A DNA stretch of 64,000 bases from a virus (IMGVR_UViG_3300025133_000020), one strand, 5' to 3'. Shown: positions 8,401-53,722, numbered from the stretch's first letter. The notes: generated from the letters alone by a model not told the origin. Translations and numbers: made by a program.

Positions 8401-8726
8401 TAGTAGCTGGTGGTAATGGTAATACCGCTTCAGGTTTCTGTTCAACGATTGTTGGTGGGCAAGATAATACTGCTGGTGGAGCTAAGGCTGCCATTGTTGG
8501 TGGTTTAAATAATACAGCATCGGGTGATTACTCATTCGTTGGTAATGGTAATAATAATACTGATAGTGGGTGCTCATGCGCAATGATTGTTGGTAGTAAT
8601 ATAACCGCAGATAGAGCTTGTACAACATTCATGAATAACCTATCAGTAAAGAATATTCCAACAAGCGCTGCTGGATTACCTTCAGGTTCTGTATGGAGTT
8701 CTGGTGGAACATTAATGATAGTATAA
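5418..8726 (+). CDS. Tail fibre/adhesin-like protein A
   Basis: 1102 aa. N-terminal KGSVLSWGEVDNNF attachment-type motif; 3x ITH(N/S)LGT repeats; 2x FP..DG.NGQVL.T.G.G...W; about 13 copies of a 15-aa xSxIGGGxxNxASG repeat. Confidence 0.8.
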   Translation: MATNRLKLRSTASPYTFPQPDTVKGSVLSWGEVDNNFIFLKGLNIKNGVYDSGTSTITLNRIDGTTVSISGITAGGGGTGNTAYSSIDNYVSAVTKTITHNLGTTSIVAQLVDTGANEQIVGYLNNYQLNSVDVLLSDTIPDVEISIVSVGGSGATVGGVDVFVTGGTYSGSNILFVNNTGGTFSVSGITGGGGSGATMFTSTDNYVSGVTKTITHNLGTDGVMVQLNYNNELVVGEVNNYQTNSVDVTMSQTLNNVKTLVLGGPITSGGTGGTDVFVTGGTYTGTTIIFTNNSGGTFSVSGITGGGGTGTTVYESTDNYISGVTKTITHSLGTTSILSQLIDTGANEMIDGFIDNYQTNSVDVTLSQTLNGVKIVAASIGGSGSTSPAGSDTWVQYNDSGSFGATSGFTWDGSEKLDVTSNYSGSTQKLVIGNPNLAGLADYDGVSMTYRNPLSGGTSVITAGNLSGLSGEDNHTVVGYVDFLGSVQHMITASPVTGLDMSSEVGSDTAKFNLEAGENVRVDVNSTATTAFQVYDGNTGTIRFAVDVNGGGVTINDSFTFPNGDGNNGQVLQTDGVGNVTWEDVSGGTGSTSPAGSDTQIQFNDSGSFGANTGFTFSPLSGNVLSVQSGYGTSGSTTKMSRQFVGIDSLSSIEGAGTLYTNSDAPNYATINAIGNLNTLGLSDNGVVVGNFNFGGGRVGLFAETGATQMALVDNNANYNSNVLVDYIGIGLNYVSGNTESSLQVGNGGVQAHLNPVSGDTKQFAVTNGSGVNYFSVDYSPQYGYSGITFFEAYTFPTTDGSANQVLETNGVGELSWVSVSGGGSSIMVVGGGSNSTVRDGVGNQATSDRSAALGGGGNTASGYYSTIAGGSTNEAGGNCSFVGGGQSNSGTTEYSTIGGGCGNTASGTYATIAGGGGMMGGNCATGCASFIGGGGANTASGYYSVVAGGGGMGGSNSASGNYSAVLGGYGNTAIAHGSTVGGGYNNTASGYYSVVAGGNGNTASGFCSTIVGGQDNTAGGAKAAIVGGLNNTASGDYSFVGNGNNNTDSGCSCAMIVGSNITADRACTTFMNNLSVKNIPTSAAGLPSGSVWSSGGTLMIV
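5684..6550 (+). repeat. Three ~60-codon ITH(N/S)LGT repeat units in fibre A (fourth copy in fibre C, ~13655-13850)
   Basis: Units start near 5684, 6021 and 6363; the DNA gtaactaaaacaattactcaca is shared by all three. Confidence 0.85.
7950..8600 (+). repeat. 45-nt degenerate coding tandem repeat (beta-solenoid), about 13 units
   Basis: Consensus xxSxIxGGxxNxASG; Gly almost always encoded by GGT. Confidence 0.85.
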
Positions 8727-8750
8727 ATAATATAGAATAAAAACAATAAA

Positions 8751-11669
8751 ATGGCAGCAAGAAATAATATTTATGGTAACCTAGCGGTTAGAGGAACATT
8801 AAGTTTGAGAAACTTCGAGTTCCCAACATCAGATGGGACAAACGGTCAAGTAATGGTAACCGATGGTGGTGGTGGCTTATCGTGGGTTAACATGTCAGGT
8901 GGAACGTCAGGTTGCTGCTTAGACGTATTCGTAACGGGTGGTACTTATAGTGGTGATACAATCATATTAACTAATACCACAGGTGGTACAGTTAGTATAA
9001 CGGGAATCACAGGTGGTGGCTCTGGTAGCACAAATCCAGGTGGTAATGATTATGCTGTTCAGTTTAATAACACTAATACTTTTGACGGTAACGATGATTT
9101 CACTTGGAATCACGTAGATGGAATCCTTAATGTAACAAGTAGTGCTGGAACTGGTGTTAACAGATTCAGTGTTGGTTCTGCGGTAATAGCGCCAATGATA
9201 GATATTAGCGGTGTTACCTCAAATATTTATGAGAATCCACTATCAGGTGGTAGTTTACACACAGTATCCCTCCAAGGGGACTTAAGTGGGGTTGGCATGG
9301 GTGATAATGGTACCTTTATAGGTAACGTATCTTTAATGGGTGATGATACTGCAACTATAGGTCTAAGTCAAGAAAGGGTTCAATTAAGACATAATGACGG
9401 AACCTACGGTAATAATAACACCACTATTTATCTTGCTAATGGTATACAAATGGAATTACCAGATACTAGTGGTAATACTCTATTTGACCTCAGAAATAGT
9501 AATCATGACCAACTAATTCGAATCCGTAGTTGTGGTGATATAACATTTAATAATTCATATACATTCCCTAATTCCGATGGTAATAACGGGCAAGTATTGC
9601 AAACAGACGGTGGTGGTGTTTTATCATGGGAAGATGCCGCTTCAGGTGGTACATCAGGTGGTTCATCGACATCAATTATAATAACTGGCACTGGTGTGAA
9701 CTCTACAATGCGATGCGGTAATAATAATAGCGCAACGGGTGACTATTCAACCGCTTTTGGTAGGAATAGTATAGCTTCGGGTAATTGTTCAACAGTGAGT
9801 GGTGGATATAATAATAGTGCTGAGGTTAATGGTGATTTTTCCACCATCGGTGGTGGTGCTAGTAATGCGACAACTTGTTGGTTTACGACCATTGGTGGTG
9901 GTAGACAGAATACTGCATCTAACTATTACGCAACCGTAGCTGGTGGTGACCAAAATAACGCTACTGGTAATAATGCAGCCATTGGTGGTGGTGCTAATAA
10001 TACCGCTTCAGGTAATTATTCATTCATAGGTGGTGGTAATAATAACGTGGCTACAGTTGCTAGGGCAGTTGTTGTTAGTGGACAAGAAAATTGCGCTAAC
10101 GGTGACCAATCTTTCATTGGTAGTGGTTATCAAAATATAACTTCTGGTAATCATACAGCAATTGTAGCTGGTTGGGATAATACGGCATCAGCCAATTACT
10201 CATCTATAGGTGGTGGTGCCCATAATACCACATCTGGCGGTACTTATGCGTCAATTGGTGGTGGTCAGAGTAATACGTCAAACGCTGCTAACACAACCGT
10301 TGCTGGTGGTAGTGGTAATACGGCTTCAGGATATGCGGCATTTATTGGAGGTGGAGCATATAATACCGCTAGTGATGCTGCATCAACCGTAGCTGGTGGT
10401 GTAAATAATGTTGGTTCGTGTGTTTATTCAACTATAGCTGGTGGTAAAGATAATATCGCTTCAGGTAATTCAACCACGATTGCTGGTGGAGAAAATAACA
10501 CTGCTGGTGATGACTACACAACCATTGCTGGTGGTAAAGATAATGTCAGTAATTATTACGCATCATTCGTTGGTGGTGGGTGTGGCAATGCCGCTACTTG
10601 TACTTATTCGACAATTGCTGGTGGTAGTGGAAATACAGCATCTGGTGGTTATTCATTCGTTGCTGGTGGTTTGGGTAATACCAATAGTGGTACTGGTTCA
10701 ACGATTGCTGGTGGTATATATAATATCATTAATAGTGATGCTGCTGCATCTACGATAGGTGGTGGATATAATAACACTATTCCGACAGGAACTACTGTGA
10801 CTATTGGTGGTGGGCAATATAACACAGCATCTGCAAATAGAGCAACAATTGCTGGTGGTAGTGGTAATACAGCGTCTTGTCATGGTTCAACAGTAGGTGG
10901 TGGTAAGATGAACAACTCAAGTGGTGATTATGGTACAATCAGTGGTGGTTGGATAAATAATGGTTCAGGTAATTGTTCTGTAATAGGTGGTGGTAGTGAA
11001 AATACTGCCTCTGGTACAATATCCTTCATCGGTGGTGGTAGAGCTAACAGTGCAACTACAACATACTCAACAATCGTTGCTGGGTGTAACCACTTAGCGT
11101 CTGGTCTATATTCATTCATTGGTGGTGGTCAAGATAATACTGCTACAGGTAATCACTCAACCATAAGTGGTGGGTACGATAATGACGCTACAGGTGATTG
11201 TTCTACAATCGGTGGTGGTAAGGATAATATCGCAGAGCAAAACGCAACAATCGGTGGTGGTATTGATAACACCGCATCAGGTTATTACGCGGTTATTGGA
11301 GGTGGTACAAATAATACTGCTAATTCTGGTTGGCACGTAACTATTGCTGGTGGTAATAGGAATACTGGTTCAGGTAACTATGCAACCATAGGTGGTGGTT
11401 GGAGGAATGATGCTTCAGGTGAGTATACAACCGTTGCTGGTGGTAGGTGTAATGTGGTAGACGGAGACGGTTCTGGTATTCTTGGAGGGTATAATAATAG
11501 TATTACTGGTACATCAAAAACGTTTATCGTTGGGGATAATATTACAGCTAATAGAACTTGTGCAACATTCGTTAACAACTTATCCATTACGGATATACCA
11601 ACTAGTGCTGCTGGCTTACCTTCAGGTTCGGTTTGGCGTAGTGGTACTACTTTACAAATTGTAGTATAA
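8751..11669 (+). CDS. Tail fibre/adhesin-like protein B
   Basis: 972 aa; about 39-40 copies of the 15-aa repeat; C-terminal cap (IPTSAAGLPSGSVW) nearly identical to fibre A. Confidence 0.8.
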   Translation: MAARNNIYGNLAVRGTLSLRNFEFPTSDGTNGQVMVTDGGGGLSWVNMSGGTSGCCLDVFVTGGTYSGDTIILTNTTGGTVSITGITGGGSGSTNPGGNDYAVQFNNTNTFDGNDDFTWNHVDGILNVTSSAGTGVNRFSVGSAVIAPMIDISGVTSNIYENPLSGGSLHTVSLQGDLSGVGMGDNGTFIGNVSLMGDDTATIGLSQERVQLRHNDGTYGNNNTTIYLANGIQMELPDTSGNTLFDLRNSNHDQLIRIRSCGDITFNNSYTFPNSDGNNGQVLQTDGGGVLSWEDAASGGTSGGSSTSIIITGTGVNSTMRCGNNNSATGDYSTAFGRNSIASGNCSTVSGGYNNSAEVNGDFSTIGGGASNATTCWFTTIGGGRQNTASNYYATVAGGDQNNATGNNAAIGGGANNTASGNYSFIGGGNNNVATVARAVVVSGQENCANGDQSFIGSGYQNITSGNHTAIVAGWDNTASANYSSIGGGAHNTTSGGTYASIGGGQSNTSNAANTTVAGGSGNTASGYAAFIGGGAYNTASDAASTVAGGVNNVGSCVYSTIAGGKDNIASGNSTTIAGGENNTAGDDYTTIAGGKDNVSNYYASFVGGGCGNAATCTYSTIAGGSGNTASGGYSFVAGGLGNTNSGTGSTIAGGIYNIINSDAAASTIGGGYNNTIPTGTTVTIGGGQYNTASANRATIAGGSGNTASCHGSTVGGGKMNNSSGDYGTISGGWINNGSGNCSVIGGGSENTASGTISFIGGGRANSATTTYSTIVAGCNHLASGLYSFIGGGQDNTATGNHSTISGGYDNDATGDCSTIGGGKDNIAEQNATIGGGIDNTASGYYAVIGGGTNNTANSGWHVTIAGGNRNTGSGNYATIGGGWRNDASGEYTTVAGGRCNVVDGDGSGILGGYNNSITGTSKTFIVGDNITANRTCATFVNNLSITDIPTSAAGLPSGSVWRSGTTLQIVV
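9730..11510 (+). repeat. 45-nt degenerate coding tandem repeat, about 39-40 units
   Basis: Counted by eye from the translation; units are 14-17 aa. Confidence 0.85.
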
Positions 11670-33869: not shown

Positions 33870-34229
33870 ATGGAGAGATATAAACAACTAACCCTTGAGC
33901 AAATATATGAGCGATTTGACATAGCCCATATTAGAAGACTTATCGCGTACAGTGATAAAAAGAATCCAATCAACTTGGACAACGTATCAATGCACCAACC
34001 ATTATATGAGATGATGCCAGATGAGGTAACATTAAGTGATGACGCACCAATAGATTATAAAACTAAGGTGGCGTTACTTGAAGCTCAGTTAGAAGCGGAT
34101 AGAGCTAAACGATTAAATGAAGCTCAATTTGTGGTGGCAAATACTGACGACAATAATGAAACTGTCGAAGTACCTATGAATCTGTTAAAGCAGATTATGA
34201 CAGTTTTGAATAATAACAATAAGAAATAA
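33870..34229 (+). CDS. Hypothetical protein
   Basis: 119 aa ORF; TATTTAC at 33833. Confidence 0.6.
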   Translation: MERYKQLTLEQIYERFDIAHIRRLIAYSDKKNPINLDNVSMHQPLYEMMPDEVTLSDDAPIDYKTKVALLEAQLEADRAKRLNEAQFVVANTDDNNETVEVPMNLLKQIMTVLNNNNKK

Positions 34230-34240
34230 GTTTTACAAAA

Positions 34241-35293
34241 ATGGCTGATAAAAAACCAAATGTTTTCCCAACAACGGAGACAACTCCAGTAGAAACACCT
34301 GAAGCTCCAACACAACATGTATCTGACGCAGAAATGAGCGCATCTCAAGAGATGCTTAAGCGTACTGAACAACAATTAAAAGAACGTGAAGCAGCGTTGA
34401 ACACACCAAAGATTGATGCGGCACCTATTGAAGCTCTAAATTATAATCAATTGGCTGACCTGTCACAAAAAGTGACAAAAGAAGCTATGGCTAATCATCC
34501 AGCAATGCAAACTGCCGTGGTTCCAGAACCAGTTGATACCGAATTAAGTAGCCTGTTAAGCCCTAAATGGGATTCAGCTTATGATATGATTCCACTACCA
34601 TCAAAGGCTAAAACCTATAAAGGTGTGAAGTCTAGCGTTAAGGTGGCTTATATGACAGGTTCTGATGAGAATATTCTAACTTCAGCTAACCTATTGGAGA
34701 GTGGTGACTTCCTTAAAGTTCTGGTTAGTAGAAACCTATTAGAACCAAACCTTAAATATGAGGATTTATTGGTTGGCGATAGAAACGCAATCATGATTTG
34801 GTTAAGAGGTAGTTCATTCGGAAATATGTACCCAATCACTATTATAAACGATGACGGTGTGGCTGAAGAAGTAGAGTATGATTTGAATGGTTTGAAATAC
34901 ATATACATGGATATTGACCCAGATGAAAATGGTTACTTTGATTTTACGTGCCCACAGAGTGGTGATGTTCTTAAGTATCGATACCTAACAGTTCGTGACG
35001 AAGACGCTATCGAAGCTCAAATAGAGGAAGATGATGAAAACGGTGTTCAAGTTAACCGTAGGGCAACCTATAGATTACAACGACAAATCGTAACGATTAA
35101 TGATAATTCAGACGTTACATACATATCCAAACGTATTGACGATATGAGATTGGGTGATATTAGAGCTTTTAGGAAGTTCTATGACGAAAATGAATCAGGA
35201 GTGGATTTAAAAATTGAAGTATTGACGGCTGGGGGTAAGTCCGTCAAGACGTTTCTTCCGTTTAACTTCAACTTTTTTTGGTCTAAGTCATGA
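34241..35293 (+). CDS. Tail assembly chaperone/baseplate hub assembly protein (gp26-like)
   Basis: IPLPSK...MTGSDENIL...LLVGDRNAIMIWLR..SFG...PFNFNFFW; lies between tube and tape measure. Confidence 0.75.
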   Translation: MADKKPNVFPTTETTPVETPEAPTQHVSDAEMSASQEMLKRTEQQLKEREAALNTPKIDAAPIEALNYNQLADLSQKVTKEAMANHPAMQTAVVPEPVDTELSSLLSPKWDSAYDMIPLPSKAKTYKGVKSSVKVAYMTGSDENILTSANLLESGDFLKVLVSRNLLEPNLKYEDLLVGDRNAIMIWLRGSSFGNMYPITIINDDGVAEEVEYDLNGLKYIYMDIDPDENGYFDFTCPQSGDVLKYRYLTVRDEDAIEAQIEEDDENGVQVNRRATYRLQRQIVTINDNSDVTYISKRIDDMRLGDIRAFRKFYDENESGVDLKIEVLTAGGKSVKTFLPFNFNFFWSKS

Positions 35294-35534
35294 GTACCGT
35301 AATTGGTTAGAAGAAGAGTTTTTCGTTTGCACTAAACATATCGGATATTCTTATGCCGACCTATTGATGATGCCTACTTCAACTAGAAGGTATCAACTAC
35401 ACCTACTTATGAATGAAAACCGAGCTAAACAAGAACATTACGACAAGTTGAGGGAGAAGAACTCTGGTGGTAAAAATACCATTAGCGGTGACGCATTAAA
35501 GTCTAAGATGAAATCAGGTGAAATCAATACTTAA
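35274..35534 (+). CDS. Frameshift-accessed chaperone extension (gp51/T-like), +1 frame
   Basis: The +1 frame is open 35226-35534 and encodes FFGLSHEYRNWLEEEFFVCTKHIGYSYADLLMMPTSTRRY... The T7 run at 35273-35279 lies just before the frame-0 stop. Missed by the ORF track. Confidence 0.7.
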   Translation, partial: FFGLSHEYRNWLEEEFFVCTKHIGYSYADLLMMPTSTRRYQLHLLMNENRAKQEHYDKLREKNSGGKNTISGDALKSKMKSGEINT

Positions 35535-35576
35535 TGTTTCCGACCTTAAGGATATTTATTACTATAACCTTTAGCA

Positions 35577-36914
35577 ATGAAAAGAAGAGTAAAGATAACT
35601 GAGAGTCAATTCGATAGATTATTCGAAGATGATACTGACCCTATGCTGATATTCCAGAACTTGGAAGTGGGTGATAGTATCTATACCAAAGAGACAGATG
35701 GGTCACACTCATTCCAAGTAATAGATGATTTAGGTAACGCCCTTAAGTTGGCTAGCTTAGACCAAAAATCAACCAAAACAGGTTGGAATTATATCGTATC
35801 TAAGGTTGAAGGTATCCAAGATGATGATATTAAACTACAACTAATATCTAAGAAGAACCCAGACGCTGCTCCGCGTAATCATACAATAAAAGGTGTTTTA
35901 AGTGTTAAGACATTCGATAAGAATAACACCGAAAAAGATTCCGTTACTGTAGGGGAACCACCAAAACCAAAACCAGACCCAAACTCACCAACTAACGCTA
36001 CAAATATAGCTACGGATGATATTGATGATGAGGATACAAGACGTAAAACATTAGAAGATGTACTTAGACAATTAAAGGAATTAAAGGAAGGTAGGTATTA
36101 CATTTTCAAAGTAGAAGAGACTACCAGCATCATATTCAAAGTTAATAATAATGATGGGTCTAACCTAAATGTTACCATAGTATCATCAACTGGTGCTGAA
36201 AAGGATAAGTATTTAGCACTTAAAGGTGATGAATATACTATACCATTAACCATGGAGAATTTAAGTATATCGGATATGGGTCATGGTTGGTTTAATATGG
36301 GTATGATTGGTGGTGGAAATACCAATACCTTATCAGATATTTCAAATATCAGCGACTTTGTTGAATATAGTGGTGAAGATGATAATGACGACCAAGCTGA
36401 CGACCAAGCTGACGACCAAGTTGATATTAAAAAACCTAATAAGAATAAGATGTTAAACTTTTTGAAAAAAAATCCAGACATCGCTTCCGCGTTACACCAC
36501 CAACCAAAATTATTTGGTATGTTTGATGCTGGTGAACCAGTTGGTTTAGCTGCTCTTAATAACGTACTAAACAGTTATGAAGATAGAACAGAGGCTGGCG
36601 AACAATTCGAAAATAACCGTCAAGTTAAATTTACAATACAAAGTCACGATATCCAACTTAAGGTTGGTGCCACTAACACCGATAGGTATAAGAGGGGTGC
36701 TAATATGAGAGCTATAACAAGAAAAAATGATAGGGGTATTGTAATGTTATTTATTGGGGAGGGCACCAGAAATGAGCTTACCATAAAAATCTTAGACCTT
36801 GTAGATGATGATACATATAAGGTTAAATTCATCCTAACTAAAATCATAAATAAGGTGGAAGAGACTGATAGCAAATATGGCGTGATAAAAATAACTGATT
36901 ATAATAATAAGTAA
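35577..36914 (+). CDS. Hypothetical late protein with MKRRVKITESQF N-terminal motif
   Basis: 445 aa; own GATATTTATTACTA at 35551; acidic/Pro linkers separating beta-rich modules. Confidence 0.7.
   Translation: MKRRVKITESQFDRLFEDDTDPMLIFQNLEVGDSIYTKETDGSHSFQVIDDLGNALKLASLDQKSTKTGWNYIVSKVEGIQDDDIKLQLISKKNPDAAPRNHTIKGVLSVKTFDKNNTEKDSVTVGEPPKPKPDPNSPTNATNIATDDIDDEDTRRKTLEDVLRQLKELKEGRYYIFKVEETTSIIFKVNNNDGSNLNVTIVSSTGAEKDKYLALKGDEYTIPLTMENLSISDMGHGWFNMGMIGGGNTNTLSDISNISDFVEYSGEDDNDDQADDQADDQVDIKKPNKNKMLNFLKKNPDIASALHHQPKLFGMFDAGEPVGLAALNNVLNSYEDRTEAGEQFENNRQVKFTIQSHDIQLKVGATNTDRYKRGANMRAITRKNDRGIVMLFIGEGTRNELTIKILDLVDDDTYKVKFILTKIINKVEETDSKYGVIKITDYNNK
36387..36420 (+). repeat. 12-bp tandem repeat x2.8 (DDQA)
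   Basis: gacgaccaagct repeated. Confidence 0.9.
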
Positions 36915-36916
36915 TT

Positions 36917-39376
36917 ATGGCTGATGGAAGTAGAGAATTAAGAGAACATTTAGCCTTACTAAAGAAGATAGCCAAATATCAAAAAGATATGGGGTCTGGC
37001 TTCGATGGGTACTTAGATGGTATAAAGAAGCTTGGTATGCAGCAAGCTCAAATAGAACATCTATTAACCAGTCAGTACCAGCTACATGAAAAAATTATAG
37101 ACCTTGAACTTAGGAAAAGTAGAGCCACTGGAGTAGTGGCAGATGATTTACAAGACCAAATAGATGCGGCTATAGAGCTTAATGATGCTTACGAAGAGGG
37201 TATAGCCTTCGAACAACAACATTTAGACCTACTTAGGGAGAGTACTCAACAAGTAAGTTTACTTAATGTGGGTTATAAATCCATGGGTAAAGCTTGGAAT
37301 AAAATTCCAGGTCAAGCCAAGAAAATGTATGGTTGGGTTTCCAGCATGGCTGCTTTGGATATGTCCAAAGATATTAAGCAAGCCGAGCTTAGTATGGGTG
37401 TACTATCCAACCAATCCAAGTTCTTCTCTAAAACAATGTCCGATGCTTCCAAGTCCACCATTCAAATTGGTATTGGCGTATCCGACTTAGCGAAATCACA
37501 AGCTGAATACTCCGAGAGTATCGGTAGAAATATGATGCTTTCGGAAGACCAGTATCAAGCTATGGCTGAAATGGCTAAGGGTACTGTTCTGGGTGTTCAA
37601 GGTGCAGCAGAGATGGCAGCATCTATGGAAACCTTCGGGTTAAGTGTTGAAGGTTCTCGTGATATGATTCAGGAGACCGTGGATGCGGCTCAGAGTATGG
37701 GTACAAATACCTCTAAGACCATCAAAGAGCTTAGTAACGCTCTTAAATTGGCTCAGAGGTATCATTTCAAGGGTGGTATTAAAGGAATGGCTAGTATGGC
37801 TTCCTACGCAGCCAAAATGGGTATGGATATGGCTAATGTGGCTGGAATGGCTGAAAAGGTATTCAGACCAGAAGGTGCTGTTGAAATGTCAGCTAGATTG
37901 GCTACCATGGGTGGTCAAATGGCAAGACTTGGTGACCCGTTCACTTTGATGTTCAAGGCACGTAACGATTTAGAAGGCTTCATGAAAGATGTTGGGGCTG
38001 CGGCAGAAGAATTCGCTCAATTCAATGAGAAGACTGGTGAGTTCGATATTACTGGTCTACAATTAGATAGAATGCGAGAGTTAGCTGATATTACAGGACT
38101 TAGCGTTGAAGAGATGTCCAAATTAGCTAGGGAAGGTGCCAAATTCAGTAAAATAGAAAGATTAATACCAGCATCAATTGTGAGTGATGAAGATAGAGAT
38201 TTAATATCATCAATGGCTAGCTATGATGCAAAATCTAAGCAATGGGAAGTAACCATAAACGGTGACACCAAATTCCTTAGTGATTTAGACCAGACAGAAT
38301 TAGATATATATAAAAGAGACCAAGAAAGCCTTAAAGAACGAGCAAAACAAGCACAAACGTTTGATGATGCGTTTAATAATCTTGTTATGCAATTCAAGAC
38401 GGTTGGTTTACCATTCGTTGAAGCGTTGAATGAGCATTTCGTACCAGCACTAATTGAGTTCCAAAAGAAATTAATTGATGAGGGTTGGATTGATAAACTA
38501 AAGGAAGTTGCTGAAGATGTGGCGAGTTTTGTAGTAGGGGTAGGAAAAGTAGCTAAAACATTCATTGATATCTTTGGTATTAAAGGTACCGCTATAGCTC
38601 TTGGGTTAACGACAGTATTCTTCAATGCGGCTCAGTGGTACGCCAATGGTGTGGCATTAGCTAAAGGATTCAATATGGCTAGTGGTGAAGGTGGTGGATT
38701 ATTTGACATGTTTACTGGTGGTGGTAAAAAAGGTAAGAAAGGTAAAAGCAAGATACCCAAGATGGGTAAAATGGGTAAGCTGAGTAAGCTAGGTAAATTC
38801 GCAGCACCGTTAGCCCTTCTAGGTGCTGGTATGGATGGTATAACAAATGCTGGTGATGATTCATTAACTGGTGGTCAAGCTGTTGGGAAAACCTTAGACC
38901 AAAATAAATTTATGGGTATGGGTGCAGGTTTAGGCTTGCTTGGCGGTCCTTTTGCACCTCTTACTGTAGCTGGTGGTGCTGGTATTGGTGCAATAATAGA
39001 TTTAATAGCTAATAACATGTTAGGTGATGATGCGTTAATAGGTCACCACATGGGGCAATACAACATGGATGATGGTATCATCAAATTTAACCCACAAGAT
39101 AAATTCCTTCAAATGGATGATGGGATGGTTGCATCAACTGATAAAGGAAAAATTGATGACATCGCTAAGACTTCAAAAGATTCTGGTGGAAAAACTAAAG
39201 TCGAATTTGGTGATTTGAATATTAAAGGTGAAATCACTTTGAAGGATAATAACGGAAATAAGATTAATAGTAACCTACTTAAAGACCCATTCTTCATTAA
39301 AGAAATCACAAGTATGATACAACAACAGTTGAGTATAAATCTATCAGGTGGAAAATTAAATCCTAACCCTGCGTAA
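36917..39376 (+). CDS. Tape measure protein
   Basis: 819 aa, helical and Ala/Met-rich with a Gly-rich hydrophobic C-terminal region; follows tube and chaperone. Confidence 0.8.
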   Translation: MADGSRELREHLALLKKIAKYQKDMGSGFDGYLDGIKKLGMQQAQIEHLLTSQYQLHEKIIDLELRKSRATGVVADDLQDQIDAAIELNDAYEEGIAFEQQHLDLLRESTQQVSLLNVGYKSMGKAWNKIPGQAKKMYGWVSSMAALDMSKDIKQAELSMGVLSNQSKFFSKTMSDASKSTIQIGIGVSDLAKSQAEYSESIGRNMMLSEDQYQAMAEMAKGTVLGVQGAAEMAASMETFGLSVEGSRDMIQETVDAAQSMGTNTSKTIKELSNALKLAQRYHFKGGIKGMASMASYAAKMGMDMANVAGMAEKVFRPEGAVEMSARLATMGGQMARLGDPFTLMFKARNDLEGFMKDVGAAAEEFAQFNEKTGEFDITGLQLDRMRELADITGLSVEEMSKLAREGAKFSKIERLIPASIVSDEDRDLISSMASYDAKSKQWEVTINGDTKFLSDLDQTELDIYKRDQESLKERAKQAQTFDDAFNNLVMQFKTVGLPFVEALNEHFVPALIEFQKKLIDEGWIDKLKEVAEDVASFVVGVGKVAKTFIDIFGIKGTAIALGLTTVFFNAAQWYANGVALAKGFNMASGEGGGLFDMFTGGGKKGKKGKSKIPKMGKMGKLSKLGKFAAPLALLGAGMDGITNAGDDSLTGGQAVGKTLDQNKFMGMGAGLGLLGGPFAPLTVAGGAGIGAIIDLIANNMLGDDALIGHHMGQYNMDDGIIKFNPQDKFLQMDDGMVASTDKGKIDDIAKTSKDSGGKTKVEFGDLNIKGEITLKDNNGNKINSNLLKDPFFIKEITSMIQQQLSINLSGGKLNPNPA

Positions 39377-39398
39377 AAAAATTATTTTCTGGAAACCC

Positions 39399-39429
39399 TT
39401 GACTTTTCGAAAAAAAAGTTGTTTATTTG
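39399..39429 (+). promoter_or_regulatory. Orphan host-RNAP-type promoter
   Basis: TTGACT-N17-TTTATTTG; no long ORF follows until 39650, which has its own TATTTAT (39623). Confidence 0.6.
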
Positions 39430-39434
39430 TATCT

Positions 39435-39590
39435 CATGGGGGATTATAGGGGGTTTGGTATATCCCTTCGGGACAAAACAAAAAAACAAGAAAACAAAAA
39501 ATAAGGCTGAAAGCCAAGAGCCTGAAGGCCCTAATATAATAGATTATATAACTATTATATCAAGAGTGTGGTCGGTGAGACCCTTTTTCT
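39435..39590 (+). other. Candidate short transcript unit (origin primer RNA, ncRNA or 22-aa leaderless peptide)
   Basis: G5-N6-G5 tracts, A-rich tract, four or five small hairpins, then GGTC-ggtga-GACC plus T5. Confidence 0.35.
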
Positions 39591-39649
39591 TATTTACTTC
39601 GTGAAAAATTCCATTAAAATAGTATTTATATACAAACGTATGTATTACT

Positions 39650-42600
39650 ATGGATATCAATAGCACAGCACCAAGCTTAAGAGAAATATTATTAGGTAGA
39701 AACATCATTAGCGATAGTATTACCAACAATGGGTTGGCAGCTTTGGTTGAAGGTATTAGTAGTTTAGTTTCTATTGGACACCATACGCCAAATGTTCAAC
39801 CATCAGAAGACATAGAGCTTTTAGGTGAACTATATCGGGATTTACTAATAGTGAATAATAAGCACCAAGGGTCACTTGATGACCATAGGCGAATATCTAT
39901 CATCACTTTACCAAATGATGAAACAGGAGAAGAACCATACAACCCAACTCACGCTGATTTAATTGAGGATAGTCTACTACGTGGAGACTTAAACCTTATT
40001 AACAACAAATATAGAAATGTATTGGGTGAAACCCAAATAATTGATGTCAAGTTCGTACCACAGGATATAACAACTGTTAGCGAATATGGTTCAACTTCAG
40101 GTAAGCTTGGACATGACGAAGACTCAGAGCAATACAGGAAGGATAATACTACCAAATCTAAGTACTTAGATTGGGATGCTCAATTACTCAAAGATATCAT
40201 AACCACACCAGTGGTAACAGATAAGAACCTACCCAACTATAAGACCCGTATGGAAGGTATCTTAGGTAAAGGTGATGGTTCGGTTGCTTCTGCTGCCGCC
40301 AGCGTAATGGGTAAACTATTAGGTGGTACTCAACCCAATTATTCAGTAGGTGAACCAAACCCAGTATTCGATATCCAAGGTATTCTATCCAATTCAGATA
40401 TTGATGAAACACCACTTGGTGTTAATGCTGCTGAAGGATTGAATAATGCAATCTTAGCCAACATAGGTGCCAACCTATACGAAGAAACTATTGGTAATAT
40501 AAACACCAACCCACTTAGTGTGTTGATGGGGAATGATATAATTGTTCCCAACTACAGTATAACTGTTGCCAAGGGTACATTCGGGGGGCTTTTGGACTAT
40601 TCAGAGAAAATTCTTGGGTTACAAGTACCTGTAAGTCTATTATCTCAATCATCTTCCATATTTCAATCGGAAAACCCAGTACCTAACGTTCAAAGAGCTA
40701 ATAGCTTGATTGAAAACACAGGTAAAGGTCAAATACTTAGTCTATTTGCCAATTTGAGAGCAAGTTTATTGAACTCAAATAGTGTGAAAAGTGGATATGC
40801 TCCTGGTTTTGTGGACAAACGTGACCCAAATGGTGGGATAAATCCAAATATATACGCTTTCGCAGATAATGAAGGTGGTGTTATAGACTTCCTACATGGT
40901 ACTGAAAGTAACCCAATAGCTCAATCCAACTATAATGATAAATTAGCGGCTAACTCTGGGTTTAAGGGTATAGAAAACGTTAAAAGTGAGGTATTGGATG
41001 GTACTGCTGGTCAAGTAGATTTCACTTGGTCTGACCAATACTTAGGTGTTTACACCAACACTGATTTCGAAAAGAAGAGCATCCTATGGAAAACACAAAA
41101 CCTGTTCAATCAAGCGGATAGGATGGTTAACCTTACTACTGGTAAGTATGCTAAAGCTACTCAAGGTGAAACTAACACAACGGTTGATTCTGCTGCTGGT
41201 ACTATAATTTCAAAGGGTAGTGCGGTACGTAGATTTAACGATAGATTACCTGAAACAGACCCTGACAGAATGTTCAATAGAGCTTGGACTACTTTTGATA
41301 GGTATGACAGAGTTGAGAACTTACAAAAACATGCAACATTGGATTATAAGGCTGGTGTTAACGAAAGAAGCCTAAGAGGTGAATCGGTATTAGATGATAA
41401 TGGTTTTGTTAAGATAAGTGATTATGGTGATATAGATGGTGAAGCTACTGTTGCTAACTTAAGAGGTCATATGTTTTCAATTGAAAACTTGGCTTGGGCT
41501 GATGACCTAACTAAACTAATGCCAAGTGAAATTGGTAGAGGTGATACGGTAACTGGTAAGAAAGGTAGGGTGATGTGGTTCCCACCATACGAGATGAATT
41601 TTAATGATAATACCAGCGTTAACTGGGAGTCTACAGACTTCATTGGTAGAGGGGAACCAATATACACATACAACAATACTACTAGAATCGGTACGTTACA
41701 GTTTAAGATAATAATTGACCATCCATCATACATGAATAACCTTAAAGGTGAAAGCGACCAATTGATTGATTCGTTCTTTGCTGGTGAGTTTGATGTTGAT
41801 GATAGAGTTAAAAGTAAACTAAGCGCTGATGAGATTGCTACTGTTGAAGTTAAGAGGAATCAAGAAATTGATGATGTTAACCATACACCAACAGCGACAC
41901 CTGAACCTTTTAGTGTTTTCTTCCCGTATAATTCAAATACGATACAACCAGTAAACGTTGGTTATGAGGAAGGAGCTAATTTCAACTTCGTAACTAACCC
42001 ACAGGGGATTGATGAAGGTCTGGGTACTTATACTGATATGGATGGTATAACCAGAAACGATAACACTAACTTCACCCAGAATGATATTTATTGGGAAGTT
42101 ATAGAGGACATAGGAGATAAACTAAAAGAGTGTCCCGCTTGTAAGATTACTATAACAACTTATGGTGCTACAAACGAGAACAACTTAGCCAGATTCCAAA
42201 GGGCACAAGTTATTTATAATGAAATGGTCGCATTTAACGACCCTAACGACCCTGTAAAGGAAAAACGATATGAGTTAGTGGATGGTGGAGTATTACCAGT
42301 TCAACTATTTATGGTAAACCCAAGTACGGGTATTCCATCACCTTTACCGTTGGACACTGAGTCGGTTAAAAGTAAGATAAAGGTGAGCGTTAAGTTCCAA
42401 TTCGATGCTAAATTAGCGGAAGAACTTAACCCACAAAAGAAACGAGCAATACCTCAAGCGGATTCATTATTGAATCAAGGTCTTAAAAATAGGTTCTACA
42501 ATGAACTTGGGTTTTTTAAGAAATTACAACAGGATGATAAAGTCGTGTATGATAGTATTAGTGAGAAGATTGGTTTCTTCCACCCAGCTTTCCACTCTAT

Positions 42601-43588
42601 AACACCTGAAGGGTTTAACTCAAGATTGACCTTCCTACAGCAATGTACTAGACAAGGACCCACCCTAAGTGATAATCATGAGCGACCAGATAACCTTGCG
42701 TTTGGTAAGCCACCAGTATGTATACTTAGAATTGGTGACTTTTATCACACCAAGATTGTGATAGATAACTTGAGTTTTTCATATGAACCATTGGTTTGGG
42801 ATTTAAACCCTGAAGGTGTAGGTGTTCAACCAATGATTTGTACAGTGGATATGCAATTTGCCTTTATAGGTGGTTCAAGTATGAAAGGACCCATTAACAA
42901 ATTACAAAATGCGGTTAGTTTTAACTTCTTCGCTAATACTGAAATATATGACCCACGAGCCGATTGGATTTCTGGTGATGAAGTTATCAGTGGTGTTTCA
43001 CCTGATGAAACAGGTAAAGCTGCTGCTAGTAGTACTAATGGTGGTGGAAATACTAACGCACCTGTAACTAATCAAGCGGCAACGGCTGCTGCGGCTGTGG
43101 GTCCTACACAACCACCAACCGCACCAACGGGTACTGCTGCTGTTGCTACAACAGCCGCTACTGCAACTGTACCAACTATAACAGGATTTGACGGTATCCA
43201 ACTTCAATTAATGGCTGATGGTGCTCATCAACAAACTTATGGTGTTAGGGTTAGTGTTAAAACTGAAGCTATCTATAGTGGAAGTACATTACTACTAACT
43301 ACTCAAGAGTTAAATGATTTCGTTGGTAAGGGCGTTAAACTTACGTTGATTAGTCCAGCAGGTACCCTTAAAGCTAATGAGGTGGTTCCGTTAACTGGTA
43401 GTGATGGTAAGAGTTGGAACTTCTTGAGTGGTGGTCTAGGTTATCCGTTAGGTGAGACAGTACAAAGTGGTATTGGTATCCGAGGTATGTTTACTGGAGA
43501 CTACCAACTTAAGCTTGAATATAATGGTCAGACTATAGCCAATAAGGTTATAAATATACATGGTCAAACTAGTGAATATATAACATAA
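39650..43588 (+). CDS. Large baseplate protein (gp48/gp54-like tube-initiator fold plus degenerate OmpA-like domain)
   Basis: MWFPPY..F.DNTSVNW..TDFIGRGEPIYTY.NT.R.G.L.F tube-like motif; second block CILRIGDFYHTKIVIDNLSFSYE; OmpA-like segment at ~41900-42400. Confidence 0.65.
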   Translation: MDINSTAPSLREILLGRNIISDSITNNGLAALVEGISSLVSIGHHTPNVQPSEDIELLGELYRDLLIVNNKHQGSLDDHRRISIITLPNDETGEEPYNPTHADLIEDSLLRGDLNLINNKYRNVLGETQIIDVKFVPQDITTVSEYGSTSGKLGHDEDSEQYRKDNTTKSKYLDWDAQLLKDIITTPVVTDKNLPNYKTRMEGILGKGDGSVASAAASVMGKLLGGTQPNYSVGEPNPVFDIQGILSNSDIDETPLGVNAAEGLNNAILANIGANLYEETIGNINTNPLSVLMGNDIIVPNYSITVAKGTFGGLLDYSEKILGLQVPVSLLSQSSSIFQSENPVPNVQRANSLIENTGKGQILSLFANLRASLLNSNSVKSGYAPGFVDKRDPNGGINPNIYAFADNEGGVIDFLHGTESNPIAQSNYNDKLAANSGFKGIENVKSEVLDGTAGQVDFTWSDQYLGVYTNTDFEKKSILWKTQNLFNQADRMVNLTTGKYAKATQGETNTTVDSAAGTIISKGSAVRRFNDRLPETDPDRMFNRAWTTFDRYDRVENLQKHATLDYKAGVNERSLRGESVLDDNGFVKISDYGDIDGEATVANLRGHMFSIENLAWADDLTKLMPSEIGRGDTVTGKKGRVMWFPPYEMNFNDNTSVNWESTDFIGRGEPIYTYNNTTRIGTLQFKIIIDHPSYMNNLKGESDQLIDSFFAGEFDVDDRVKSKLSADEIATVEVKRNQEIDDVNHTPTATPEPFSVFFPYNSNTIQPVNVGYEEGANFNFVTNPQGIDEGLGTYTDMDGITRNDNTNFTQNDIYWEVIEDIGDKLKECPACKITITTYGATNENNLARFQRAQVIYNEMVAFNDPNDPVKEKRYELVDGGVLPVQLFMVNPSTGIPSPLPLDTESVKSKIKVSVKFQFDAKLAEELNPQKKRAIPQADSLLNQGLKNRFYNELGFFKKLQQDDKVVYDSISEKIGFFHPAFHSITPEGFNSRLTFLQQCTRQGPTLSDNHERPDNLAFGKPPVCILRIGDFYHTKIVIDNLSFSYEPLVWDLNPEGVGVQPMICTVDMQFAFIGGSSMKGPINKLQNAVSFNFFANTEIYDPRADWISGDEVISGVSPDETGKAAASSTNGGGNTNAPVTNQAATAAAAVGPTQPPTAPTGTAAVATTAATATVPTITGFDGIQLQLMADGAHQQTYGVRVSVKTEAIYSGSTLLLTTQELNDFVGKGVKLTLISPAGTLKANEVVPLTGSDGKSWNFLSGGLGYPLGETVQSGIGIRGMFTGDYQLKLEYNGQTIANKVINIHGQTSEYIT

Positions 43589-43905
43589 TGGCAGAATATT
43601 TCGATAGATACGCAGAATTCAGAACTAATGGTGGGGTAACCCCACTTCCTGGAATTAAATTACCTGAAGTTACCACGGATAAAGCGGTGGTATATAAAGT
43701 TGGTGAAACAAGGCTTGACATCTTAAGTCAGAAGTATTATAATAACCCTTATAGTGGGTTCTTAATCATGCTAGCCAATCCACGATATGGTGGGCTGGAG
43801 TTTGATATTAAGGATAGAGATGTTATAAGAATACCCTTTCCGTTCGAAAGTGCGGCTGAGAGATATGTCACAGGGGTAAAAGAATATAAGAGGTTATATG
43901 GTTAA
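43588..43905 (+). CDS. Baseplate wedge protein (gp53/LysM-like)
   Basis: YKVGETRLDILSQKYYNNP...IMLANP.....F.I.....IRIP. Confidence 0.75.
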   Translation: MAEYFDRYAEFRTNGGVTPLPGIKLPEVTTDKAVVYKVGETRLDILSQKYYNNPYSGFLIMLANPRYGGLEFDIKDRDVIRIPFPFESAAERYVTGVKEYKRLYG

Positions 43906-46900
43906 GAAAATACAAAACGTACCGCCAGAGTGTGGGAGAATTTTATATCACGACCCCAACCCTGCTGGGTCTACAATAGTACCACTTGAGAATCTATCAA
44001 TTGATGTTAATCTTGAGGTGAGTAAGAAGTCGCGTAGTATTATCACGAGTGGTAATGATTCTACGTTCTCATCATCGAGTAGTGGTACTAATGGTAAAAT
44101 ATCATTTCTTGATGGTAGTCCTTATGGTAGTGAAGGTAAGAGAGCATTAACTACCAGCTACACGAATATAGGAACCACATTCAACACATCAGGTGATGCG
44201 GATATGGAAGGGTTCGGTATGACCGATATTCAGATTGAATTTGATACTTCATATACACCTATGATTAAGATTAAGTTCGTTGATATTCGTGGTGGAATGC
44301 TAAGTAGACAATCAACGGCACCAGACCTTAATAGGTATAACCTATTCTTCGATTTACCTTACCCTATGTTCAGTTTAACTGTTAATGGGTATTACGGTAA
44401 AGCCGTAACATACTGCTTACACCTTATTAGATGGAATGCATCATTCAACACCGAAACTGGTAACTTCGAAATTGACGCTGAATTCATTGGTTATACTTAT
44501 GCTATTTTGACGGATATGTTAATGGGGTACCTTAAAGCTGTACCTAAGACTGCCATAGGTTCAATTAAATACAAAAAATTGGCTGATGAGTATAAGGATA
44601 GTGGTATACCCGTATACACAATAGATGAAATGCTGTATAACATTTCCAAACTTAATGATAACTTAAATGAGTTCAAATCGACCAACGAGGATTATGGTAA
44701 AATAGTCGCTATTGGTGAATCTATAGCTGTGGTTAAAGAAATGAAAGAGGCTATAGAGAACCTATTTTTTAGAATATCGATTAATAGGGAAAAACTTGCT
44801 GGTGACGACACATATCAAGTATATAGTGAGGACTTACAATATAGAGATTTAGGTCCCCCTGTAAGTACAGATGCGGTACTTACCGAAGAAGATGTTAATA
44901 ACCTTAAAGCTAATAATGAGGCTACTAAGAAGCAATCTGATAGTATTAGAGAAGTTGATAAGATTATTGATGATTATAACGTAACCATTGAGGATTTAGT
45001 TGATAAGTTATTGGCTATTAAAAACTCAGGTAATCCTGACCCAGAATTATTCAAGATTATACACACGTTCCCTATTAGTTATGATGATATCAGTAACGAA
45101 CCAACCAGTGGTAGTACTAGTGCCAAGGAACCTTTAGATGTATTCTTAAAGAATGATAAATACGTTGACCCAACAGAGAGAAAGAGGGCTAATGAGATTA
45201 GGGTTAAAATGCTCAATAAAATAAGAACTATAAAGAGTAAAGAGGATTTAACCTACCAAGTTTTAGATGCGTATAGAGCCGTATTGGAGATAAATCGATT
45301 AATAGATTTTTACTGTGATGAACAAAAAAGGCTTGAGGCTAGTTTATCCGAAAAGGTAAGGAAGTTTGTTGATGACGGGTTAGAATTCAAACCAACCATA
45401 AAATCGCTGGTGAGGACTCTTACGATGCATTGTGAGGTATTGTTAGAGACAATTATGGAAGTGTCTCATAAGGCTGAAGGCTCCGACATAAGGAGAACTG
45501 AACTAATTGAAAAACTTGGTATTGAGAATCTGGATGTTAAGGTACCACCAAAGCCTGCCAAAACTAAGGATAACAAAGGAACGGACGCTCCAATATACCC
45601 ATTCCCTATGTATAATGACGAGAATGGTGATGAAAAATGGATAGGTGATGAGGTGGAAAAAGGGACTGTTGATGAGGTGGATTTCACTATAGACTTATTG
45701 GATGCTCTTATACAGAGTAAAGAGTTTGATATAAAATTAGAAGCTCTGACCAACAGTGGTAAGGTGGATTGGTTTGCATTAACACCGTTGGATACTAAAG
45801 GTAGGTTACTGGGTGGTTTAGCTCTTAACCCATATAAGAATCCTGAACCAATACATCCAGATGAGACTATGCGTATTCTTATGTATAGAATGTTCTTATA
45901 TCTTGGTGTTGGTAACACTAAAGTGGACGATGAATTATTGACGTATATTGCTAAATTTGAGGCTCACAACTTATTCGATGGGGTTAACACAAAAACTGGT
46001 GAAATGCGTAAGCTACTTAACGCTAGTTATAATTCTGGTTCTGATATTATAACTCACTTCCTTAAGGGGTCGGATAATATTAAAAATCGTAACGGTTATA
46101 ATTCAGCCCAAGCCTATATGTTTGGGTCGGATGGTGATTATGTTTATTCATATATCACAGAGACAGCCAGCGTTATAGATAGAAGGGCTTATATACCTGT
46201 TAGTGATGGTTGGTCTGGAGAAAGATTCTACAATGGTAATGAGTTGAAGAATGAAAATGATTTAGCGCTACTGGGTGCTGGGGATAATAGGCTGACATTT
46301 ATTGGTAATTACATCAACGGAACTACTGGTACAACCAAACCATATGACGGTGCTCAATATCTTAAGATACTAGGGGCTAACAATTACAGTACAACACCTT
46401 TCACTAAACCTACCACTCTAACACCGAAATTGTATAAGAGTTATACTGAAAAATACACACCAGTAACCATAAGACCAACACAAAATAGTATAGTTAATTC
46501 CTTGGAAGATGATAAAGCTATCAAGAATTTAAACCCTATTTCTGGTAAATTTGGTACTACAGAATTCTTCGAAATTAATGCGGATAATTCTATAAGTGGT
46601 GATGGTAACATATCTGAACTGACCAAACTTAGTAACGGTAATACTAAAACAACCCCACTATTCTATGTGGATTGTAATAGAGGTTCTATATTGGGTAGTG
46701 GTAGTAAGGCTAAAACTATTGAAGGGCTTACCAGAATAGGTGAGAACAAAGCATTAGTGAATGAAGGTATATTAGGCTCCCCAAAAGAGTTGGTAGTACC
46801 AAGAGTTGAATTAGGTTGGGTAGATAGAACTGTTGGTTCTCAAAATGTGGTATACGCTAGTTTATTTGGTGTACCACTATATTACGCTCAAATAGCAGCA

Positions 46901-52502: not shown

Positions 52503-52532
52503 AAAAAAAAAGTGAGATTTTCTCACTTTTTT
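52503..52532. terminator. Bidirectional intrinsic terminator
   Basis: A9-gtgaga-ttt-tctcac-T6. Confidence 0.8.
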
Positions 52533-52543
52533 CGTTTTAGGGG

Positions 52544-52574
52544 TTGACAAGTCGGAAATTTAGTAGTATATTTG
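52544..52574 (+). promoter_or_regulatory. Host-RNAP-type promoter of ssb
   Basis: TTGACA-N17-TATATTTG, an exact TAnnTTTG box; a TATTTAT motif also occurs at 52669. Confidence 0.75.
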
Positions 52575-52744: not shown

Positions 52745-53722
52745 ATGAGTAATTTAGATGCAATTTTAAACCAGTACGAGAAGTCTACCGCACAGAACAC
52801 GAATTCAGGCGGCAAAACGTTCAACTTAAACAACTACTTCACAACATTCCTACAAAAAGGGGTTAACACAGCCACAAGAACTATCCGATTATTGCCATCA
52901 GCTACGGAAGGTGAATCACCTTTTATTGAGATGTATGGACACAACTATCAGCTTGCTGATGGGAGTTGGAAAACGTTCGCATGTTTGAAGCATGAGAATG
53001 ATGAGGATTGTCCATTTTGTGATACCAGAGCAGGGTTACTTGCAGATGGTACAGAAGACGCTAAGGAAGCAGCGAAAAAGTTCCGACCAAGAAAATTTTA
53101 CATCTGCAAGGTTATTGACCGAGAGAATGAAGACCATGGGGTTAAGTTCTGGAGATTCCGTGACAACTGGCAGAAGCAAGGTACGCTTGACAAGATTGTT
53201 AACGTAATGAAGCTTGTAGAAGGTGACATGTCTGATGCTACGGCAGAGCATGGTCAAGACTTGGTAATCGATATCGCAAGAAATTCTAACCAAGTACCTA
53301 TCGTACAATCAATCCTACCTGCAAACGGTAAGAGTAGATTGTCTGAGGATGCGGCTCTTGAAAAAGAGTGGTTGGATGATAAGTCCGTATGGAAAGAAGT
53401 TTATAGCGTAAAGCCATATGCTTATCTTGAAATCGTAATCAAAGGTGGAATCCCTACTTACGACAAAGTAAACGAGTGCTGGGTTGATAAAGACACCCTA
53501 GAAGCGGATACCACTAAGGCTCCGAGCACTTCTGAGAGTTTAGATAGCGAATTAGCAGTGGGTAACGCTAATACAGGTTTAGTAGCCGAAACAACAACCC
53601 CAGTTGCAGAAACACCTGTGAAGACTGAAGCAATAGCTGAAGTTCCAGCAAGTGAGCCAGAGTTGGCGACTGCAACCACAACAACTACTACTGACGATGA
53701 GGATGACGACATGCCATTCTAA
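52745..53722 (+). CDS. ssb: Single-stranded DNA-binding protein (T4 gp32-like)
   Basis: RLLP...PF....H...C...EDCPFC Zn site; YICKVIDR...GVKFWRF; acidic tail DDEDDDMPF. Confidence 0.85.
   Translation: MSNLDAILNQYEKSTAQNTNSGGKTFNLNNYFTTFLQKGVNTATRTIRLLPSATEGESPFIEMYGHNYQLADGSWKTFACLKHENDEDCPFCDTRAGLLADGTEDAKEAAKKFRPRKFYICKVIDRENEDHGVKFWRFRDNWQKQGTLDKIVNVMKLVEGDMSDATAEHGQDLVIDIARNSNQVPIVQSILPANGKSRLSEDAALEKEWLDDKSVWKEVYSVKPYAYLEIVIKGGIPTYDKVNECWVDKDTLEADTTKAPSTSESLDSELAVGNANTGLVAETTTPVAETPVKTEAIAEVPASEPELATATTTTTTDDEDDDMPF

Follow-up and report, generated by a model that had tools for sequence, protein, structure and literature searches.

The DNA analysed here is a stretch of 64 kb (the window) from an uncultured phage, for which a nucleotide search of cultured phages gave no match. 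Its products include a contractile-tail sheath, a baseplate-hub-like protein, a SNF2 helicase and a family-B DNA polymerase whose closest cultured relatives, with 24% identity, are found in Salinibacter phages. On the 3' side of the tail block follow genes for a gp32-like SSB, a UvsX-like recombinase, an exonuclease, a DnaB-like helicase and ribonucleotide reductase. Since a 162.5-kb contig of a relative was judged by CheckV to be 46% complete and a complete relative genome (L137) has a size of 362 kb, the window phage belongs to a clade of jumbo phages. The phages are uncultured and marine, and promoter type and leaders suggest hosts among the Bacteroidota. A/C-rich leaders without an SD precede highly expressed genes of the window, which would fit a host from this group.

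Between an 819-aa ORF (36917-39376) and a 1312-aa ORF (39650-43588), both without a match in Pfam or PHROG, lies a gap of 273 nt (39377-39649). It is the second largest between long ORFs of the window and so had rightly been counted among the largest ORF-free gaps. A tRNA search found none, and blastn and tblastn searches with the gap region and the 1312-aa protein gave no match in cultured phages. All features listed in the original prediction are present at their coordinates, and the gap is organized as follows.

39380-39398, plus strand: A/T-run region upstream of the promoter, resembling an UP element (putative function); all relatives have a T-run in this position, such as the 'ttttttt(c)' that precedes 'aaagac TTGAC' in L006, L009 and L124.
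39399-39404, plus strand: -33/-35 element TTGACT, with TTG at about -35 to -33; TTGACTTT is invariant in 8/8 lineages, and the same box is found at the SSB-gene promoter at 52544.
39422-39429, plus strand: -7 element TTTATTTG of the Bacteroidota type (consensus TAHHTTTG) with one mismatch, at A-11; T[A/T]HHTTTG is kept in all relatives.
39434-39436, plus strand: predicted transcription start, 4-5 nt past the -7 element.
39438-39453, plus strand: twin G-runs GGGGG-ATTATA-GGGGG (39438-39442 and 39449-39453) on the non-template strand, at about +3 to +20; G5-6 N4-7 G5-6 in 8/8 lineages.
39457-39458, plus strand: GG that follows a TTT 3' of the second G-run.
39464-39472, plus strand: mini-hairpin CCC-TTC-GGG; in L004 this position is occupied by CCC-GAA-GGG, and the other lineages lack such a hairpin.
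About 39473-39504, plus strand: A/C-rich tract, whose RNA would be purine/A-rich; L003 and L002 have an A-rich equivalent, and L006, L009, L124, L001 and L134 are pure A/T here.
39505-39529, plus strand: GC mini-hairpins GGC-TGAAA-GCC (39505-39515) and GCC-TGAA-GGC (39520-39529); equivalents with changed stems only in L002, L003 and L004.
39526-39563, no strand assigned: AT-rich block with a 9-bp perfect palindrome (39534-39542 / 39552-39560), a candidate unwinding element.
39570-39588, plus strand: weak hairpin GGTC-GGTGA-GACC followed by C-TTTTT; below the threshold in the terminator scan and without a counterpart in relatives.
39622-39632, plus strand: GTATTTATATA, the phage-type (late-like) promoter motif that belongs to the 1312-aa gene and stands 27 nt ahead of its ATG (39650).
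39436-39504, plus strand: 22-codon ORF MGDYRGFGISLRDKTKKQENKK, not conserved.

A host-type promoter had been predicted at 39399-39429. Its boxes, TTGAC and T[A/T]HHTTTG at a distance of about 17 nt, are conserved in all eight lineages that possess the element, with a variable spacer, but the downstream box is a -7 element of Bacteroidota and not a sigma-70 -10 box, and a sigma-70 scan did not list this promoter. Sigma-A promoters of Bacteroidota consist of a -33 element TTTG/TTG and a -7 element TAHHTTTG (Baez et al., 2019; PMC6847099). The -7 boxes of L001 and L134 fit this consensus exactly, and the window and the other lineages have a T for the A at -11. By its motifs, the gap promoter looks like a plain host sigma-A promoter of Bacteroidota. 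In Flavobacterium johnsoniae, transcription starts 4-5 nt past the -7 element (PMC6847099), and because of this spacing we predict a start at 39434-39436. Counted from there, the first G-run falls at about +3 in the window and at up to +9 in L006 and L009.

The pattern TTG-N20-TWHHTTTG has six matches in the window (1.6 expected), and besides the gap promoter the only intergenic one on the plus strand is TTGACA-N17-TATATTTG (52544-52574), which is located just 3' of a strong terminator (~52509-52533). This second host-type promoter is syntenically kept in four relatives, about 12-13 kb downstream and directly before the gp32-like SSB gene. The ATG at 52745 is separated from this promoter in the window by a 12-codon ORF, a T-run, another TATTTATA motif (52668) and an A/C-rich leader of about 65 nt. 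The promoter class of the gap also heads the genes for the gp32-like SSB, the UvsX-like recombinase, the exonuclease and the DnaB-like helicase. Since a promoter of the 52544 type precedes the SSB/UvsX module, the gap promoter can be assigned to the non-late class of replication and recombination genes. Minimal origins of the T4 type contain a non-late promoter, and judging from the motifs the gap would offer one.

A second type of motif, TATTTAT, is found within 60 nt upstream of 17 of the 41 plus-strand genes of the window, the 1312-aa gene included. TATTTAT(A), the reverse complement of the T4 late-promoter word TATAAATA, is placed 12-59 nt before start codons, for example at 5397, 13436, 29780, 35553, 39623, 53777 and 63536. 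As it precedes virion genes and also some replication genes, the label 'late' is not established for it. That the gene downstream of the gap has a motif of its own proved correct, since a TATTTAT phage-type promoter stands 27 nt from its ATG and is conserved; a motif of this type is kept before the 1312-aa homologue even in the distant relatives L007, L011 and L022.

Syntenic gaps were found in IMG/VR and JGI contigs by means of the two flanking proteins and of DNA patterns. Eight lineages were distinguished: the window itself (WIN), L003, L004 (=L008), L006 (with the variants L160 and L195), L009, L075 (=L124=L212), L001 and L134. A further sequence, L002, is truncated within the element. The flanking proteins of the eight lineages are 50-72% identical to those of the window. 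The order of elements is shared and consists of a T-run, TTGACTTT, 13-14 variable nt, G-T-[A/T]-[A/T]-H-TTTG, 8-12 variable nt, a G5-6 run, a linker of 4-7 nt, a second G5-6 run, an A/T-rich stretch and, 12-27 nt ahead of the ATG in the 1312-aa homologue, a motif of the TATTTAT type. Mean pairwise identity amounts to 0.70 for the core of promoter and G-runs, to 0.63-0.65 for the coding flanks and to 0.52 for the rest of the gap, a value close to the level of unrelated AT-rich DNA. Conservation at the syntenic position was one of the points by which the original prediction was to be judged, and in eight lineages the sequence is indeed conserved there, in a layout of promoter, G-runs and A/T. 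As the eight lineages are one clade, few independent events lie behind this conservation.

Some sequences of the collection have peculiarities. Three contigs begin or end inside the element (L002 at position 1, L195 at its end and L010 at position 1), which is probably due to assembly failure at low-complexity sequence and possibly reflects a physical DNA end. A 50-codon ORF (MDKNIFNGG...) between the A/T block and the phage-type promoter occurs only in L001 (~8621-8773) and L134.

On their own, the twin G-runs are not significant, because the pattern G5-N3-8-G5, which occurs once in 64 kb, appears at least once in 13 of 100 shuffled sequences. The observation is raised above chance by the fact that the promoter boxes and both G-runs are conserved at the syntenic gap in eight lineages. 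In the contigs of relatives (56-162 kb), G5-N2-8-G5 is a single-copy pattern. The linkers between the runs (ATTATA, ACAACA, ATAA or AATAAAA) are A-rich and measure 4-7 nt, and in all lineages the G-runs lie 10-13 bp apart from start to start, which is about one helical turn. The earlier claim that the promoter fires into G-tracts holds, and the tracts themselves are conserved. A pair of G-runs on the non-template strand characterizes CSB II-like sites (PMC3664831, PMC4176368), and G5-ATTATA-G5, like the G5-6 N4-7 G5-6 of all lineages, is such a pair.

In order to follow the second G-run, a scan was performed with the promoter and the first G-run only. Every family match contained the second run as well; these matches comprised nine IMG/VR loci (seven distinct sequences, all already known) and eight metagenome contigs, mostly same-lineage copies. 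In contrast, a second G5 within about 10 nt was present in only one of the 60 unrelated metagenome matches, and most of the others have a G-run that resembles a ribosome-binding site in front of an ATG. A wide scan with TTGACTTT...G5N4-7G5 gave 77 matches, mostly unrelated, which by a rough estimate is about the chance level for a collection of this size. When IMG/VR was scanned with the -7 box plus twin G-runs and, as a control, with C-runs, there was no enrichment and no new family among the matches listed.

Other close pairs of G-runs were encountered. The single G5-CT-G5 of the complete 362-kb relative L137 was discarded as unrelated, as it has neither promoter nor A/T block. The only other close G5 pair of the window, GGGGG-N10-GGGGG (3206-3225), lies inside the coding region 1995-3671. 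Four unrelated IMG/VR contigs (L081, at ~2628-2700, L082, L132 and L092) carry a sigma-70-type promoter TTGACTTT-N15-TATAAT, with GGGGGG-TA-GGGGGG or GGGGGG-ATTTA-GGGGGG about 8 nt further on. In these four, the second G-run makes up the 5' side of a hairpin whose other side is a C-run farther downstream, and a T-run follows this hairpin in L081, L082 and L132. Such loci could perhaps represent a different kind of G-headed short transcript. A few sigma-70-type promoters followed by G6-TA-G6 occur in other phages, perhaps no more often than by chance.

The A/T-rich block behind the G-runs was also compared. In the window (39526-39563) it is about 38 nt long, its longest pure A/T runs have about 10 nt, and it belongs to the least stable 0.1% of 40-nt windows in terms of duplex stability, but it is not the minimum of the window. 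In L006, L009, L124, L001 and L134, pure A/T sequence begins about 5-10 nt past the G-runs and extends over 30+30, 43, 57 or 62 nt; the blocks of relatives are rich in TA steps, direct repeats and palindromes. When runs of at least 40 pure A/T were searched for, the block adjoining the G-runs was the sole one in contigs of 92 kb and 56 kb and one of two in the 162-kb contig, where the other is an (AAT)n microsatellite. The latter, of about 49 nt, is situated near the contig end (161605-161653 in G001, the contig of L124). As the pair of G-runs is likewise single-copy in those contigs, the most G-clustered and the most A/T-pure sequence of these genomes stand side by side behind one promoter.

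In the subclade of the window (WIN, L002, L003 and L004), an A-rich tract, two GC mini-hairpins of 3-4 bp and an AT palindrome take the place of part of the A/T block. Two AT hairpins had been expected at 39535-39560; there is one AT palindrome instead, and its 9 bp are kept in L003 by compensatory change (ATATAATAC / GTATTATAT). In general, the block downstream of the G-runs keeps its composition and not its sequence or fold (identity 0.52).

More distant relatives (L022, L011/L012, L007, L025 and L026) possess a long A/T-repeat gap with tandem repeats and up to 127 nt of pure A/T, but no G-runs, and two of them (L022 and L011) also keep the TTGACA promoter. In L011, a 248-kb relative, the TTGACA promoter in the same syntenic gap stands before some 210 nt of tandem repeats made of A/T only (5685-5896, with an equivalent in L012), in which a 10-nt unit AACTATATAT is repeated five times and then a unit of about 12 nt, ATAAATAATAAT, nine times. 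In still more distant homologues the gap has only 38-60 nt. Since distant homologues are devoid of the G-runs or have only a short gap, the module is a derived feature of one clade.

How might such a module work? Our tentative first choice, to which we give a probability of about 0.37, is a transcription-primed R-loop origin of replication of the T4 oriF/oriG type with a CSB II-like G-run anchor. Host RNA polymerase would start at the strong, non-late promoter of the Bacteroidota type, around 39434-39436, and would transcribe within the first 20 nt the two G-runs of the non-template strand. An rG:dC hybrid, possibly a DNA:RNA hybrid G-quadruplex, would tether the nascent RNA to the DNA by its 5' end, and the RNA would stay hybridised over the easily melted A/T-rich block downstream. 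The 3' end of the RNA, perhaps after processing by RNase H, would then prime leading-strand synthesis by the T4-like replisome. An anchor made of rG:dC or of a quadruplex might offset the weakness of the rU:dA and rA:dT hybrid over the A/T block.

Several observations lead us to favour an origin. The boxes and both G-runs are kept while spacer, linker and flanks vary, and the second G-run accompanies every family match as compared to 1/60 among unrelated ones. In the contigs of relatives, the single-copy pair of G-runs adjoins a near-unique pure A/T run. The A/T block keeps composition only, a property stated for the unwinding elements of T4 (PMC3016281). Also, the phage has replication and recombination genes of the T4 type, and this non-late promoter is placed among its tail genes. 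Finally, the G-runs are unpaired in every predicted fold and therefore should be free for the formation of a hybrid or a quadruplex. The analogy with R-loop origins, drawn already in the original prediction, fits the conserved anatomy and the nearby T4-like replication genes; the origin itself is what we infer.

Other observations count against an origin. The A/T block of the window is short and is not the least stable DNA of the window. Given that no strong terminator precedes the 1312-aa gene, the promoter could just add early or middle transcription of the tail genes, and in L001 and L134, where the 50-codon ORF stands behind the block, it could serve a small gene. Furthermore, the lineages are phylogenetically dependent, and distant relatives keep promoter and A/T repeats without G-runs (L022, L011) or only the 38-60-nt gap. 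Cumulative GC skew, suggested earlier as a check, shows no inflection at 39.4 kb; the skew tracks gene orientation, so that this result is uninformative rather than refuting. Two origins of T4 also lie outside skew shifts (PMC3016281).

A more far-reaching version, which we regard as rather unlikely, is that the phage uses the very trick of CSB II. A hybrid G-quadruplex would clamp the transcript of the host polymerase on the AT-rich unwinding element, forming an R-loop origin in the late-gene block, and the 3' end of the RNA could double as a loading point for the sliding clamp that switches on the adjacent late promoter. If the CSB II-like reading were true, no primer site anchored by a G-quadruplex would have been described from a phage before, and a large clade of uncultured marine jumbo phages of Bacteroidota would gain a defined origin. 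In the open-access literature we found no description of a promoter-proximal pair of G-runs at a phage origin.

The main rival, which is ranked below the origin, is doubtful but deserves serious weight. It sees in the module a cis-acting tuner of transcription without any role in replication. An extra non-late promoter would read into the 1312-aa tail gene or, in L001 and L134, into the small ORF downstream of the A/T block, and the G-runs would modulate the output, either upwards by re-initiation assisted by an R-loop or G-quadruplex or downwards by early termination induced by a hybrid quadruplex. Effects of promoter-proximal quadruplexes in both directions are known from the literature: a G-quadruplex-forming non-template sequence just past the start raises RNA output in vitro via repeated R-loop formation (PMC7341879), and hybrid quadruplexes can also suppress transcription (PMC3664831). 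In favour of a tuner, ordinary genes such as that for SSB are driven by the same promoter class, and there is no canonical terminator between the promoter and the 1312-aa gene, although strong ones are used elsewhere. A terminator scan of the plus strand from 34000 to 45000 gave none, and the stem at 39570-39588 has 4 bp, compared to 7-9 bp plus long T-runs in the evident terminators that the phage has elsewhere. Transcripts of the gap would be expected to read on into the 1312-aa gene or to end by a non-canonical route. However, a tuner leaves unexplained that in relatives the longest pure A/T run of the contig lies right beside the G-runs and that only the composition of the A/T block is kept. 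Also, a conserved phage-type promoter of its own, 27 nt from the ATG, is already in place for the 1312-aa gene, and it is not obvious why a baseplate or tail protein should be needed early.

It is improbable that the product is a discrete small non-coding RNA, in which the unpaired, G-rich 5' head would be the functional part, as a sponge for protein or ribosomes or by pairing with C/U-rich targets, and the AT-rich tail would be loosely constrained. Such an RNA would agree with the fact that the conserved part consists of the promoter and the first ~20 transcribed nt, with the lack of a conserved ORF and with the hairpin followed by T5 at 39570-39588 in the window. However, RNAalifold analysis of the eight transcripts gave 0 conserved pairs, so that the check for covariation across relatives was negative and the covariation-backed fold typical of a structured non-coding RNA is absent. 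The putative RNA of 171 nt (39430-39600) has a fold energy like that of shuffled sequences (z = 0.04), the 5' heads of the transcripts fold no better than shuffles (z 0.5-1.1), and the pair of GC mini-hairpins (39505-39529) reaches -7.5 kcal/mol (z = -1.2). The hairpins of the cluster predicted earlier do exist at their coordinates, but they are no feature of the family, with GC mini-hairpins confined to WIN, L002, L003 and L004. In Rfam, nothing meaningful was retrieved at the gathering score or at E <= 1, the best hit having 16 bits versus a gathering score of 100. There is no conserved 3' end or terminator, and a GC-rich hairpin with a U-run at a conserved distance, as in intrinsically terminated small RNAs, is missing; the terminated RNA of about 155 nt envisaged before is doubtful, as its 4-bp hairpin lies below the threshold and is not conserved. 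Without a conserved fold or an Rfam match, and with a hairpin that is weak and not conserved, a discrete structured RNA of ~155 nt is unsupported. Also, the window contains no complementary C-rich target for the G head, with only three C5 runs in 64 kb.

Still less probable, in our view, is a protein-binding site at the DNA level with an incidental promoter, for example for the terminase small subunit at a G-run/AT/G-run signal resembling herpesvirus pac1, or for a factor of late transcription or clamp loading. The start-to-start spacing of 10-13 bp in all lineages would suit such a site, as would the contig of L002 that begins between the G-runs and those of L195 and L010 that terminate in the A/T block. 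However, most contigs run straight through, and breaks at G-runs and at A/T low-complexity DNA are common assembly artefacts. Moreover, the linker varies in length from 4 to 7 nt, and the strict orientation of the G-runs and their distance to the conserved promoter suggest a role linked to transcription.

That the leaderless or short peptide MGDYRGFGISLRDKTKKQENKK (39436-39504) is the product, an alternative raised earlier, is scarcely credible: the ORF exists and L003 has an ATG at the same place, but L004 has TTG and a stop after six codons, five lineages (L006, L009, L124, L001 and L134) have no start codon and have lost the frame, and the conserved letters are the G-runs themselves and not a reading frame, so that comparison effectively refutes it, and neither frame nor start is kept as it would be in a small or leaderless protein gene.

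Returning to the origin reading, its interest lies in the fact that hardly any uncultured jumbo phage has a known origin of replication. The module is compact (~250 bp), conserved and single-copy, and unites promoter, twin G-runs and A/T block. If an origin were confirmed, the mechanism of a G-run-anchored primer would extend from mitochondria and ColE1 to phages. If the module were only a transcription tuner or a small RNA, it would still be a new conserved regulatory element of a clade of marine phages, of modest general interest.

Among known systems, the primary origin of T7 consists of the promoters phi1.1A/B followed by an AT-rich region, and as in T7 the promoter of the gap fires into an AT-rich stretch. 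In contrast to the gap, T7 employs promoters of its own polymerase, and its origin has no G-runs. In ColE1, a host promoter gives rise to RNA II, which remains hybridised with the aid of an rG-run that pairs with a dC-run and is converted to a primer by RNase H; the RNA II primer is said to have been described by Masukata and Tomizawa in 1990. The gap resembles ColE1 in its host-type promoter and in an rG-run that could pair with a dC-run, as proposed here. It differs from ColE1, where RNA II has about 550 nt, a conserved fold and the antisense RNA I, whereas the gap has no conserved fold and no antisense partner was seen.

Human CSB II has roughly the sequence G6-A-G8 and is located some 100 nt or more from the promoter. 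Like the mitochondrial light-strand promoter with CSB II, the module consists of a promoter and two adjacent G-runs on the non-template strand, here G5-6 N4-7 G5-6. Whereas a single-subunit polymerase acts in mitochondria, a bacterial multi-subunit enzyme would act on the module, where the runs begin at about +3 to +9 and the linker is longer; the resemblance is one of design and not of homology. The G-runs of mitochondrial CSB II form a DNA:RNA hybrid G-quadruplex that makes the replication primer (PMC3488243, PMC4176368), and the hybrid G-quadruplex accounts for the stability of the R-loop primer (PMC3488243).

In T4, oriF (uvsY) and oriG (gene 34) have a minimal size of about 100 bp and consist of a middle promoter and an A+T-rich unwinding element, for which heterologous unwinding sequences can be substituted (Kreuzer and Brister, 2010; PMC3016281). 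Their transcript forms a persistent R-loop that is used as leading-strand primer (PMC3016281). In contrast to T4, where the G-run pair is absent and the middle promoters depend on MotA, the module has twin G-runs and a host-like sigma-A promoter of Bacteroidota; its A/T block is short in the window. As in oriF and oriG, the sequence of the candidate unwinding element seems to be free and composition alone to matter, and as with oriG in the tail-fibre gene 34 the module is placed among late virion genes. Also like T4, the phage encodes a T4-like polymerase, an SSB, a UvsX-like recombinase and a DnaB-like helicase.
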